The position numbers and the translations under genes are program-made. Positions 992 through 4,400 of a stretch of 64,000 bases of DNA are shown piece after piece. Numbering within the stretch: the first letter of the stretch is position 1; each line of letters opens with the position of its first letter. The notes under the pieces were generated by a model. That model was not told where the DNA came from. It did no database searches and saw only the letters and a list, made by a program, of their open reading frames with translations. Location of the stretch: positions 3,424,001 to 3,488,000 of the forward strand of contig OZ242318.1 of the NCBI GenBank assembly GCA_965208105.1, given 5' to 3'. The DNA comes from Candidatus Latescibacterota bacterium (GTDB lineage: Bacteria > Latescibacterota > UBA2968 > UBA8231).

Positions 992-1602
992 GTGGCAGAC
1001 AGGTAATCGTCGGCGTGACCGGGGCGAGCGGCGCGCTCTACGCCGGCCGCCTTTTGCGAGCCCTTCTGGTTCTGGGACACACCGTCCACCTGGTGCTTTC
1101 CAGGTACGGGCGGTTTCTGCTGCACGAGGAACTGGAGTTCCGCCCCGACCAGGAGTCGGTACTGCAGTTTCTGGTGCGCCTCTACGGCCGGGAAGTTCAG
1201 CAGGGGGAGTTGCGGGAGTACGGCTTCAACGATCTCGCCTGTACTCTTGCCAGCGGCTCCGTTCCCGTCGACGGCATGGCGGTTGTCCCCTGTTCGGCCA
1301 AGACCCTGTCGGGAATTGCCCGCGGCGCCGCAGGCAACCTGATCGAGCGGGCAGCGGACGTCACCCTGAAGGAGCGCCGTCCCCTCGTTCTCGTTCCCCG
1401 AGAGACACCGCTCAACCTGATCCAGCTGCGCAATCTCGCAACGGTGGCAGAGGCCGGTGGAATCATTGTGCCCGCCATGCCGGCATTCTATCAGAAGCCT
1501 CGAACCTTCGATGATTTGGGAGATTTCATCGCCGGCCGCGTGTGCAACCTTCTAGGGATCGAGCATGACCTCTTCCCGAGTTGGCCAGGATCGAAGGGGT
1601 AG
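988..1602 (+). CDS. ubiX: UbiX flavin prenyltransferase
   Basis: [44 protein letters not shown] motifs; ATGA overlap with the upstream gene. Confidence 0.93.
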
Positions 1603-1719: not shown

Positions 1720-1800
1720 AAGGGGGATCCGGGGGCTCCATCTGCGTGAGGAGTGGCAGACGGTTAAGGAGGGAGACCTTGCCCCCGGATCCCTTGCTCC
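1720..1800 (-). ncRNA. Putative sigma54-dependent small RNA (three-way junction, two CU-rich loops); 3' end uncertain
   Basis: 13-bp closing stem (1724-1736 with 1781-1793) encloses two hairpins with loops UCUCCCU and CACUCCUCAC. It starts about 7 nt after the predicted sigma54 +1 (about 1800). Confidence 0.55.
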
Positions 1801-1810
1801 CCGTTCCGGA

Positions 1811-1826
1811 TGCAAAGAGGGTGCCA
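1811..1826 (-). promoter_or_regulatory. sigma54 -24/-12 promoter
   Basis: Minus strand reads TGGCAC-CCTCT-TTGCA, matching TGGCAC-N5-TTGCW exactly. Confidence 0.7.
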
Positions 1827-1854
1827 GAGTTGATCCCCGTTTCTGTCAAATTCC

Positions 1855-1883
1855 TTTAACTTCTTGTTTTTCAATCACCTAAA
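1855..1883. promoter_or_regulatory. AT-rich IHF-like binding site
   Basis: TAACTTCTTGTTTTTCAATCACCTA has WATCAA-N4-TTR-like matches on both strands, at about -55 to -83 from the sigma54 start. Confidence 0.4.
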
Positions 1884-1902
1884 AAAATGAAACTCTTTGC
1901 AG

Positions 1903-1924
1903 AACCATGTGATACTACATGGTT
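1903..1924. promoter_or_regulatory. Palindromic upstream activator site (candidate enhancer-binding-protein site)
   Basis: Perfect inverted repeat AACCATGT-N6-ACATGGTT at about -103 to -124. Confidence 0.45.
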
Positions 1925-2193
1925 TTTCGTGATAATGAAGGCATTATGTTGTGCAGGCGATGATCGGTCGCACAAAATGTGGACGTGGAGGCGAGGACCG
2001 GGAGGGAGAGCGCGGGGAAAGAGGAAAATCTGCACTTCAGAGCTGAAAATATTTCCCACCCCGGTTGGATTCAGGGCGAGTAAGGTGCCTGGGATCGAGG
2101 GCAGGGACAGGGGTGCCGGGGAATGGAATCCGATCTCACCTGCGTGCAGGGAAAAAATTTCTCATGCCAGGATGAGGACAGGTTTGCAGGGGT

Positions 2194-3654
2194 TCACATT
2201 TGCAGTTTGGCCAGCTGCGGGCGGAGTAGTTGGCGCGGCAGCATGGCCTTGAGGAGGGTAGGCCCTCCCAATTGCACCAGGCCGCGGCACAGGGTCCAGC
2301 AGCCGTGGCGGCAGAGGACCTCCCCTTTGAAAGGTGATCCCTGTTTCAGTTCCAGCGATTCACCCCGGAAGAGAGTTTGCACCTGCGGCCAGGTCAACTC
2401 CAAAGACGGCCCCTGCATTTCTCCTCCCCACATGGTGACGGCTTGTTGGCTCAGGTAGTAGTGGTCCTTGTGGCTGCGGGCGATCCGCATTCCGCCCCTG
2501 ACGTAGAATGGAAATTGGCGCTTGAAGGCAGCTGTTTCGCGGGGCTGAAGGCAAAGGTGGCGGCCGTCCATCGCGAGGAGTTGACCCGGCGGGCAGGGCG
2601 GCTCGAAATTCCAGTGAGCTCGCAAATGACGCCTGGCCCGATCCGCTTCGGGGTCGGACTCCGCGGCGGGAATCCACGAACCGTTGTCGGCGTCGCACCT
2701 GGTCCAGGCGGTCTCTCCCAGTTTTCGGATGCGGGCGACGAAGGCCCCCTCGGTGTCGTGCAGGTGAGGCCAGACCCGGGCGCAGCCGGCCAGGGTTGTC
2801 GGGTAGCGCATTGCAAATTCGGAGGGCAGCGGAACCAGGTCGATGCCCTCGACCTTCAGGACTTCGGTTATGTCCGGATTTTTTTTAATCAGCCCCAGAA
2901 GCACGTCCTCGTTTTCCTCCAGGGAAAGGGAGCAGGTTGAGTAAACCATCGTACCGCCTGGGCGCAGCATGTGGAAGGCCGCCCTCAGCAGCCCGGTTTG
3001 CTGCTGGGCCTGGCGCCGGGAGTCCGCAACCGACCAGTAGCGCAACATGCCGAGGTCCTTGCGCACGATGCCGTCGCCGCTGCAGGGAGCGTCGAGGAGG
3101 ATGCGATCGAAGAAATTGTGGAAATAGCGTGCCAACAGGGTGCCCGGGGCCTTGGTCACGATGGCGTTGGCCACCCCGCATCGCTCGAGATTTCCCACCA
3201 GCCCCGGGATGCGTTTGCCCTGGGGTTCGTTGGCAACCAGCAGTCCGCTGTTTTCCATGCCGGCGGCGATCTGGGTGGCCTTGCCTCCGGGTGAAGCGGC
3301 GAGGTCGAGAATGCGTTCGCCCGGACGGGGATCCAGGGCCGTTACCGCCAGGGTAGCGGCCTTGGCCTGGATGTAGAATCCCCCCAGGGCGTACTCGAGT
3401 GTGTGCCCGGGGGAGACGAGGGAGCCGGGCAGATCAAAGGCGTGCTCGCACCAGGGCGCCTGCCCGCCGTCCTCCAACAACCCAGGCAGCAGATTCGCGG
3501 CCGGGGGCATCAGTGGGTTGAGACGCAGGCTGGAAGGAGGTGGGGTCAGCGAGCAGCGGCGGAAGGCCTGGCGCTGAGCGCTGTCCGGAAGCAGTTGCTC
3601 GAGGTGGTGAAGGAGGTCCTGCAGCCGGGTCTGCTCCCCGTCCTCTTTGCGCAT
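2194..3654 (-). CDS. RsmB/NOP2 family RNA m5C methyltransferase (RsmF-like)
   Basis: DLAASPGGK, ILLDAPCSGDG, VYSTCS, EENE motifs. Start placed at ATG 3654. Confidence 0.88.
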   Translation of the reverse strand: MRKEDGEQTRLQDLLHHLEQLLPDSAQRQAFRRCSLTPPPSSLRLNPLMPPAANLLPGLLEDGGQAPWCEHAFDLPGSLVSPGHTLEYALGGFYIQAKAATLAVTALDPRPGERILDLAASPGGKATQIAAGMENSGLLVANEPQGKRIPGLVGNLERCGVANAIVTKAPGTLLARYFHNFFDRILLDAPCSGDGIVRKDLGMLRYWSVADSRRQAQQQTGLLRAAFHMLRPGGTMVYSTCSLSLEENEDVLLGLIKKNPDITEVLKVEGIDLVPLPSEFAMRYPTTLAGCARVWPHLHDTEGAFVARIRKLGETAWTRCDADNGSWIPAAESDPEADRARRHLRAHWNFEPPCPPGQLLAMDGRHLCLQPRETAAFKRQFPFYVRGGMRIARSHKDHYYLSQQAVTMWGGEMQGPSLELTWPQVQTLFRGESLELKQGSPFKGEVLCRHGCWTLCRGLVQLGGPTLLKAMLPRQLLRPQLAKLQM

Positions 3655-3725
3655 CTCTCGGCGCGGTTCTTTATTCTCCACAATGATTTTTATCTTAGGC
3701 ACGCCCCTCGAGCAGGGCAAGAAGA

Positions 3726-4400
3726 ATGGGTTCCCAACATTCATTCATAATCAGTGATCTGCACCTCGGCTCGGAATTTTTCTGCAGGGAGAAGTTCCTG
3801 TCCTGGCTCGACGGTTTGGAGCCCGAGGCTCAGTTGATCCTCAACGGCGACATCATCGAGGATTCCGCCGCGGCTCTCTGTGCCGGGCATCGGGCCGTTC
3901 TCGAACGCCTGGTCCAGGAGTCACACCGCCGGCCTCTCGTGTGGATCTACGGCAACCACGACGCCGACGTGGTCCTGGAGGACTCAGGCCGGATCAAGTT
4001 CGCCCACCAGTGGGCGATCGGGCAACGGTTGCTGGTCATGCACGGAAATTCTCTGGACAAGATCATGCCCAGGCACAGGGTCTTTAAGAAGCTCTTCAGT
4101 TTCTTTCACCACGTGCTCATGTCCCTGGGATTTCAGAGAATGCACGTTGCCCAGTACGCCAAGAAGTGGGCTTTCCTCTACCAGTTTCTGAACAGGCACG
4201 TGGCGGAGGAGGCCCTCCGCGTAGCGCGGGAGAAGGGATTCGAGGCCGTGACCTGCGGGCACACCCATGCGGCCATGGAAATCAGGCAGGATGGACGCCG
4301 CTACCTCAACACGGGTGCCTGGACCGAGGAGCCTCTGCATTACGTCGCGGTCAATGCGCGGGAGATCGGATTGCACATCTATGACGGCAGGCTGGCGTGA
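3726..4400 (+). CDS. Calcineurin-like metallophosphoesterase (LpxH-like)
   Basis: SDLHLG, NGDI, GNHD, HG and CGHTH motifs. Confidence 0.85.
   Translation: MGSQHSFIISDLHLGSEFFCREKFLSWLDGLEPEAQLILNGDIIEDSAAALCAGHRAVLERLVQESHRRPLVWIYGNHDADVVLEDSGRIKFAHQWAIGQRLLVMHGNSLDKIMPRHRVFKKLFSFFHHVLMSLGFQRMHVAQYAKKWAFLYQFLNRHVAEEALRVAREKGFEAVTCGHTHAAMEIRQDGRRYLNTGAWTEEPLHYVAVNAREIGLHIYDGRLA

Follow-up and report, generated by a model that had tools for sequence, protein, structure and literature searches.

Anatomy of the locus

A 64,000-nt window (the whole stretch of DNA analysed; coordinates are positions in it unless marked as genome or locus coordinates) from the genome of a Candidatus Latescibacterota bacterium (assembly GCA_965208105.1, contig OZ242318.1; 4.85 Mb, single contig, 61.6% G+C; hereafter G000) was analysed for a putative RNA gene in the 591-bp gap between two convergent genes, a ubiX-type flavoprotein gene and an RsmB/F-type rRNA methyltransferase gene (rsmF). 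On the minus strand of this gap lie a palindromic upstream activator site, an AT-rich spacer, a sigma-54 promoter and a Y-shaped RNA core, in that order (Table 1). An earlier note on this DNA had claimed the perfect TGGCAC-N5-TTGCA, the palindrome and a 13-bp stem enclosing two loop hairpins; the promoter and the palindrome were found as described, and the coordinates and letters of the stem and hairpins were verified. The locus is very probably a real sigma-54-driven RNA gene, with an RNA start near 1800 as predicted from the usual spacing to the -12 element. Both neighbouring genes carry terminator-like hairpins of their own, at 2080-2055 for rsmF and at 1651-1665 for ubiX, respectively. Labels of the forms G001, L033, g15 and X5 denote genomes, loci, genera and sequencing runs, respectively.

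Table 1. Coordinates of the features at the RNA locus.
Feature	Positions	Strand	Basis or remark
Sigma-54 promoter TGGCAC-N5-TTGCA, TGGCACcctctTTGCA	1826-1811	minus	perfect match; kept in relatives
Upstream activator site, palindrome AACCATGT-N6-ACATGGTT	1924-1903	minus	begins 96 nt ahead of the -24 TGG
AT-rich spacer, activator site to promoter	1827-1902	minus	G+C 0.31
Y-shaped RNA core, three-way junction	1724-1793	minus	fold and covariance model R1
Outer stem P1, 13 bp	1793-1781 with 1736-1724	minus	fold
Hairpin P2, AAGG-UCUCCCU-CCUU	1780-1766	minus	fold
Loop of P2, UCUCCCU (family motif CUCCCC)	1770-1776	minus	alignment rows
Hairpin P3, CCGUCUGC-CACUCCUCAC-GCAGAUGG, one G-U pair	1763-1738	minus	fold
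Loop of P3, CACUCCUCAC (family motif CUCCUC, almost invariant)	1746-1755	minus	alignments
Possible 3' extension of the transcript	1621-1723	minus	RNA-library contig; not conserved with G001
Conserved block B: ACATnTTGTG, about 20 nt, CAACAT	1942-1982	minus	alignment of 32 loci
Conserved block A: terminator-like hairpin and T-runs 3' of the RsmB/F gene	2016-2080	minus	alignment of 32 loci
ubiX-type flavoprotein gene, converging on the RNA gene	988-1602	plus	Pfam PF02441
RsmB/F-type rRNA methyltransferase gene, upstream of the RNA on the same strand	2194-3744	minus	Pfam PF01189
Small open reading frame of related loci, examples (locus coordinates)	L033 1303-1476; L013 1594-1800; L006 1617-1832	minus; plus; plus	and 10 more loci

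Structure, covariation and strand of the RNA

The 88-nt RNA was folded at -51.0 kcal/mol (z = -5.5), an energy that none of 200 shuffled sequences equalled, and the plus-strand counterpart gave z = -3.0. Covariation was estimated with 32 matches (30 distinct) to a covariance model, R1, which had been built from 10 sequences; the matches were aligned to the model and only P1 and P3 were counted. In this alignment, whose fitting to R1 somewhat favours pairing, 98.1% of the cells of P1 and P3 pair and 15 of the 21 pairs are changed on both sides; any of the five measures used was attained by 0 of 500 shuffles, and slid controls paired in 37-51% of cells. The single G-U pair of P3, which becomes an A-C mismatch on the plus strand, had been taken earlier as a cue to the strand, and the family counts bear this out, with 52 G-U cells versus 3 A-C cells and with pairing in 98.1% of cells on the promoter strand versus 90.3% on the opposite one. 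A plus-strand reading as a CsrA sponge with GGA loops was ruled out by the same count together with the failure to find CsrA in the genome.

The loop words CUCCUC (P3) and CUCCCC (P2) are almost invariant while the stems vary. A hairpin with a C-rich loop was predicted at the position of P2 in 28 of the 32 loci (our own count over the printed minimum-free-energy folds), and the number of C/U-rich loops per locus in the minimum-free-energy folds was two in 16 loci, three in 7, four in 3, one in 5 and zero in 1. Most relatives have an additional 5' hairpin that also bears a C/U-rich loop. G000 and G001, the other species of the genus, share 94% identity over the element and 58-65% over the flanks; the RNA element appears to be under selection. 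Comparison with relatives, in which the promoter and the loops are conserved and the stems covary, strongly supports the claim of a structured non-coding RNA with conserved C/U-rich loops.

Sigma-54 promoter and upstream activator site

The promoter was read in 33 of the 38 genomes with an R1 match, the five weakest matches being left out. TGGCAC-N5-TTGC was present on the RNA strand in 33/33 loci, perfect in 27 and with one mismatch in 6, 33-55 nt ahead of the element in the short form and 110-152 nt ahead of it in the long form, which has additional 5' hairpins. Against an expectation of about four from base composition (own arithmetic), 11 copies of the perfect promoter word were counted in the 4.85-Mb genome, so that one match on its own settles little; that the promoter is found again in all homologous loci is decisive.

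An activator site resembling AAAAACACGTGGTATCACATAGTTTTT lies upstream of the promoter in at least 26 of the 33 loci, and three further loci are doubtful. It is spaced from the -24 box by 86, 96-98 or 105-106 nt and by no other distance, in steps of about one helical turn. The 68 nt preceding the -24 box have a G+C content of 31% in G000; over the loci the median for this spacer is 0.26 versus 0.53 further upstream, with values below 0.40 in 27 of 32 loci, and the AT-rich DNA is presumably bent or bound by IHF/HU. When the genome was scored with a matrix of 22 sites (this site included), 29.4 bits were obtained for this locus and 21.6 bits for the next site, which has no sigma-54 promoter; as the only high-scoring site in the genome is the one at the RNA promoter, the activator appears to be dedicated to that promoter. 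The features by which a sigma-54 promoter is recognized, namely -24 and -12 elements, rpoN and enhancer-binding proteins in the genome and an activator site about 80-150 bp upstream, here at helically phased distances and with AT-rich DNA in between, were all found, and the combination of promoter, activator site and AT-rich spacer proposed earlier is strongly supported by the relatives.

Two more blocks further upstream are conserved across most of the 32 aligned loci. Block B reads ACATCTTGTGG, about 20 nt and then a CAACAT-like word; it may be a second regulator site. A consistent RNA fold for it was not found in the alignment of 32 loci, and a sigma-70 promoter was rejected by eye for its unsuitable spacing and -10 element. 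Block A (2016-2060) reads GGAAnnTTTTTC, about 15 nt and then TTTTTCCC, and includes the rsmF terminator.

Distribution and genomic context

With 1600-2200 as the BLAST query, the hairpin was matched in 10 of 24 further family genomes and in 0 of 16 genomes from other families in the class. The same region, searched by short-word BLAST against the whole genome, returned only itself, by which a dispersed repeat, the possibility raised in the earlier note, was rejected. Exactly one R1 match was found in each of 38 of the 76 family genomes, representing 16 of the 18 genera. In a phylum-wide sample, R1 matched 35 of 63 family genomes, and 87 genomes outside the family gave 2 weak matches (E about 1e-3).

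The R1-negative genomes are not all true absences: the locus is cut by a contig end in G002, and G018 carries a divergent RNA. This divergent member (L145 8462-8630, minus strand), missed by R1, lies in the same gap as the family loci. Its sigma-54 promoter precedes three hairpins, G+C-rich and with C-rich loops (z = -5.7), and a half-site of the CCACATGATG type stands directly upstream of the -24 box rather than about 90 nt away. A match to ubiX was not found in the R1-negative genomes G009, G021 and G060. In G010 a decayed remnant was seen (L170 2100-2270, minus strand), which consists of block B and a P3-like piece only; the promoter, the enhancer and the outer stem are missing, and the genome also lacks the candidate regulator described below.

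The ubiX and RsmB/F genes are conserved neighbours of the RNA gene. Among the 33 loci scanned with Pfam through their submitted open reading frames (ORFs), the upstream ORF was RsmB/F in 17 and GH113 in 7, and a Flavoprotein ORF lay 3' of the RNA in 18 (19 when G000's own ubiX is included), nearly always convergent. The nearest ubiX relatives among named records are metagenome-assembled genomes labelled Candidatus Latescibacterota. Contigs about 98% identical to 1400-2400 were obtained from a run that is labelled as sponge metagenome (X5; 17 letters and one 1-nt gap differ over 1001 bases) and from one that is labelled as marine metagenome (X6; 16 letters and the same gap differ over 837 bases). 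None of these differences falls within promoter, enhancer site or RNA core; close to them are 1832, directly ahead of the -24 box, and 1902, adjacent to the enhancer site, which differs in X6 only.

Transcription machinery and candidate activator

The presence of rpoN, enhancer-binding proteins and IHF had been proposed as a check in the earlier note, and all have counterparts in the genome: one rpoN (PF04552), 12 strong PF00158 proteins with a Fis-type helix-turn-helix (HTH_8) and two genes of the HU/IHF family. Neither Hfq nor CsrA was found in the genome. In front of the first start codons of long ORFs, the words GGAG/AGGA show a peak of about four times the background at a distance of 9-12 nt; Shine-Dalgarno sites are therefore in use, and C/U-rich loops have ample potential partners.

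The candidate activator is an NtrC-type response regulator of 473 amino acids, encoded at about 1345868-1347289 of the genome with its start at MAKKHILVVDDD. When the 12 regulators were compared between G063 (complete, without the RNA) and G064 (with the RNA), only this one was present in G064 and not in G063. Its ortholog (E < 1e-170) was found in all 38 RNA-positive genomes and was absent from 28 of the 38 R1-negative ones, counts that come from related genomes and not from independent samples, the other 11 regulators being contrasted in two genomes only. The 10 exceptions are explicable: 7 belong to genus g18, of which one was opened, namely G018 with its divergent RNA, and the others are G002, with a contig end at the locus, and G009 and G060, without a ubiX match. 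In G061 and G063, from which the regulator is absent, the ends of rsmF and ubiX are only about 18 nt apart, and the RNA gene is therefore cleanly missing. Regulator and RNA have thus been lost together in two well-checked independent cases, with G021, where the ubiX match was not found, as a possible third. This regulator is probably the activator of the RNA promoter.

The start of the regulator gene is overlapped in another frame by a gene for a kinase of 417 amino acids with PAS, HisKA and HATPase domains, which is a cytoplasmic PAS histidine kinase. Regulator and kinase scored below every NCBIfam equivalog cut-off; AtoC/AtoS-like models were best (AtoC, 515 versus 714 bits), and the cut-offs for PrsR and PrsK of the PEP-CTERM-box system were not reached (regulator, TIGR02915, 399.5 of 502.6 bits; kinase, TIGR02916, 97.7 of 300 bits). 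A frame of 734 amino acids at this place (G000:C1 1345868-1348072; locus L169 7868-10563) is an over-call, an artefact of high G+C.

Two other enhancer-binding proteins are encoded 8-16 kb from the RNA, one with a receiver domain (genome position 3416792) and one with a GAF domain (3411277). Orthologs of both keep this position in five complete or near-complete relatives (G001, G008, G014, G016 and G042), and in the stretch fetched from G043 the receiver-domain one only was present. They were not favoured as the activator, since orthologs of both occur in RNA-lacking genomes and each has a likely local target, a sigma-factor gene and an ammonium transporter gene, respectively. A perfect sigma-54 promoter stands after the receiver-domain regulator gene (G000:C1 3416602, minus strand; L129 5574-8651), about 7.4 kb before the window, and the next gene on that strand encodes an RpoS/RpoD-like sigma factor of 290 amino acids; the layout recalls the Borrelia Rrp2-RpoN-RpoS cascade as outlined in the excerpt of PMC11109971. 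The gene of the GAF-domain protein, which is NifA-like (516.6 bits, just below the TIGR01817 cut-off of 528.85), adjoins an ammonium transporter gene (G000:C1 3409700-3412824; L129 201-3325).

Possible extent of the transcript and the downstream small ORF

A metatranscriptome contig of 159 nt covers 1621-1778 with 8 differences, which weakly suggests that the RNA continues for about 100 nt past the element, to 1621. Cover in the RNA-library run X23 is absent over 1468-1603 and 1808-2400, an absence that proves nothing.

The earlier statement that no protein gene follows the RNA holds for G000, where no ORF of at least 30 amino acids was found after the element in the window and no homologue of the small ORF of its relatives was found in the genome by a six-frame profile search (best E = 0.81). 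It fails for 13 of 32 related loci in 7 genera, in which a conserved ORF of 33-74 amino acids follows on the same strand 18-84 nt after the element; it would encode a small membrane protein, basic at the N-terminus and with a single hydrophobic helix, and no Pfam family was found for it beyond noise at E up to 1. The ORF was not seen in G001 within 420 nt after the element, and it is missing in genera g12, g16 and g8, in which the RNA is retained. Because RNA, promoter and enhancer persist in genomes that have no such ORF, it can be argued that the RNA functions in its own right.

In genus g15, five loci were folded downstream and each has three extra hairpins with C/U-rich loops, a terminator 230-340 nt downstream and no U-run at the element itself. 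These tandem hairpins, of the form GGCCGGCCUCCCnCUCCCCGGGUAGGUCGGCC, lie 3' of the small ORF and end in a U-run (L033, about 1160-1300, minus strand; L035, L036, L037 and L011). One of them gave a sub-threshold match of 30.6 bits to the Rfam ar14 model. Some g13 loci have one or two additional downstream hairpins, and the number of loops per transcript ranges from 1 to 6 across the relatives.

Proposed mechanism and alternatives

In the mechanism that we propose, the PAS kinase would activate the NtrC-type regulator, which would bind the palindrome 96 nt upstream, loop over the bent AT-rich spacer and open the sigma-54 promoter, and sigma-54 RNA polymerase would then transcribe the minus-strand non-coding RNA from near 1800. 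As the regulator is encoded together with the PAS kinase, the RNA would report whatever the kinase senses. The exposed loops UCUCCCU and CACUCCUCAC would mimic the anti-Shine-Dalgarno sequence of 16S rRNA and would pair, without Hfq, with the G-rich ribosome-binding sites of a set of mRNAs, by which we infer that translation is lowered. We lean modestly towards the whole chain, from the kinase through the regulator and the sigma-54 promoter to an Hfq-independent small RNA (sRNA) that pairs with ribosome-binding sites; for its last step, pairing with mRNAs rather than titration of a protein, the case is close to balanced with a slight inclination to pairing.

Several observations weigh against this mechanism. 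The assignment of the activator is thin, resting on co-occurrence among relatives and on two checked losses with a possible third. In L038 and in the three g16 loci the promoter is kept, and a recognizable enhancer site was not seen. The RNA-library contig has a depth of 2.4, shows neither strand nor ends and may represent carried-over DNA. A U-run terminator after P1 was not found in G000, where the longest run within 14 nt is 2, and by this simple measure a U-run of at least 4 within 14 nt after P1 is present in only 13 of 32 loci. Complementarity of the loop motifs to the generic Shine-Dalgarno sequence would not account for target specificity, and the repetition of identical motifs, 1-6 per transcript in relatives, also fits a protein-titrating RNA. 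Finally, where the small ORF follows closely, the element could serve mainly as its leader.

That the RNA titrates a protein which binds pyrimidine loops, in the manner of CsrB/RsmZ with CsrA, CrcZ with Hfq/Crc or GlmY with RapZ, and pairs with no mRNA, is the alternative that survives best, and we consider it rather doubtful. The same short motif recurs in the loops of hairpins whose stems vary, the loop number differs between loci and up to three more such hairpins stand downstream in genus g15; Hfq and CsrA are lacking from the genome, so that their place may be taken by a different global RNA-binding protein; and several known sigma-54 sRNAs, CrcZ and GlmY among them, act by titration. However, a candidate for the titrated protein was not found, the motif is complementary to the Shine-Dalgarno sequence in use in this genome, which makes pairing the simpler reading, and the alpha-r14 sRNAs, which have the same design, act by pairing. 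A bolder form of this idea, which we likewise hold to be doubtful, makes the RNA a CsrB-like hub of a new post-transcriptional system of bacteria without Hfq and CsrA, driven by the two-component pair and sigma-54 and sequestering a loop-binding global regulator with 2-6 identical pyrimidine-rich loops; the transcript of many relatives would in addition code for the small membrane protein and would thus be a dual-function RNA.

A role of the element as leader or leaky attenuator in a sigma-54-driven mRNA of the small membrane protein, with its loops acting on the ORF in cis and the G000 copy being a remnant left by loss of the ORF, is improbable. The conserved ORF after the element in the 13 loci agrees with such a role, as does the position of the terminator in the folded g15 loci, only after the ORF and the three hairpins. 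In G000, however, there is neither an ORF beside the RNA nor a homologue elsewhere, and yet promoter, enhancer and RNA are kept, the RNA at 94% identity with G001, where such an ORF was not seen within 420 nt after the element either; the three genera that retain the RNA without the ORF argue in the same direction, and about a dozen loci have, by our own reading, a U-run within 30 nt after P1, two of which (L013 and L006) also carry the ORF. A mere two-way terminator with a chance sigma-54 match, to which a strong G+C-rich hairpin between convergent ubiX and rsmF might point, can hardly be the explanation, given the promoter in 33/33 loci with its phased enhancer, the conserved loops on covarying stems, the G-U pairs that favour one strand, the separate terminator-like hairpins of both genes and the deletion of the element, with the genes about 18 nt apart, where the regulator was lost.

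Comparison with known systems

When 1400-2400 was searched against Rfam at E up to 10, only chance matches to microRNA-type hairpins were returned, and at E up to 1 no match to Qrr, GlmY/GlmZ, CrcZ or NrsZ was found over 10 homologous loci; the earlier note's inability to place the RNA in a known family is thereby borne out. A CsrA sponge of the CsrB/RsmZ type differs in that its GGA loops could be formed by the plus strand alone; the strand count favours the minus strand.

Nearest in control are Qrr, GlmY/GlmZ, CrcZ and NrsZ, which work with Hfq, RapZ or Crc. They are examples of sRNAs dependent on sigma-54 and an enhancer (PMC3045617, PMC4253122 and PMC8871633). Their regulators are LuxO (Qrr1-5), GlrR with IHF (GlmY/GlmZ), CbrB (CrcZ) and NtrC (NrsZ). 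They share with the present locus the -24/-12 promoter, upstream activator sites, DNA bending and a regulator seemingly dedicated to one or a few RNA promoters. They differ from it in that no sequence or structure match was obtained at E up to 10, that Hfq was not found here and that their enhancer sites and regulators are not orthologous to those described here.

In Firmicutes, the C-rich loops of RsaE/RoxS and RNAIII pair with G-rich ribosome-binding sites without Hfq. These RNAs are unrelated in sequence to the present one, have sigma-A-type promoters, belong to another phylum and gave no Rfam match.

Nearest in design is alpha-r14 (NfeR1/SmrC14, RF02344), in which an identical anti-Shine-Dalgarno motif is placed in loops on variable stems and with which the related cuckoo/CcsR RNAs of Alphaproteobacteria are listed; NfeR1 acts without Hfq. 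The excerpts of PMC10746234 describe redundant, ultraconserved anti-Shine-Dalgarno seeds by which alpha-r14/NfeR1 silences mRNAs at their ribosome-binding sites, including those of a two-component system, and report that the NfeR1 promoter lacks a sigma-54 signature, in contrast to the sigma-54-type promoter of the Latescibacterota RNA. The motif of alpha-r14 is CCUCCUCCC in three hairpins, as against CUCCUC/CUCCCC in two loops inside a three-way junction here, and the two RNAs occur in different phyla. The RF02344 threshold of 58.8 bits was not reached by the relatives (25.7 and 30.6 bits), and the window gave no match at E up to 10.

To our knowledge, Latescibacterota (WS3) have no cultured member. 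A full-text literature search for Latescibacter* with sigma-54 returned nothing, and the sole co-mention with sRNA was unrelated according to its title and the start of its abstract. The locus offers a complete testable chain, with a PAS kinase, a candidate NtrC-type activator, one enhancer site, a sigma-54 promoter and one RNA, which is conserved across a family whose near-identical relatives occur in sponge- and marine-metagenome runs, and a covariance-model seed of more than 30 sequences is now available for annotation. The RNA is a new family of an already known kind: the design of identical anti-Shine-Dalgarno loops on variable stems appears to arise again here, outside Proteobacteria and Firmicutes and in a genome without Hfq or CsrA.

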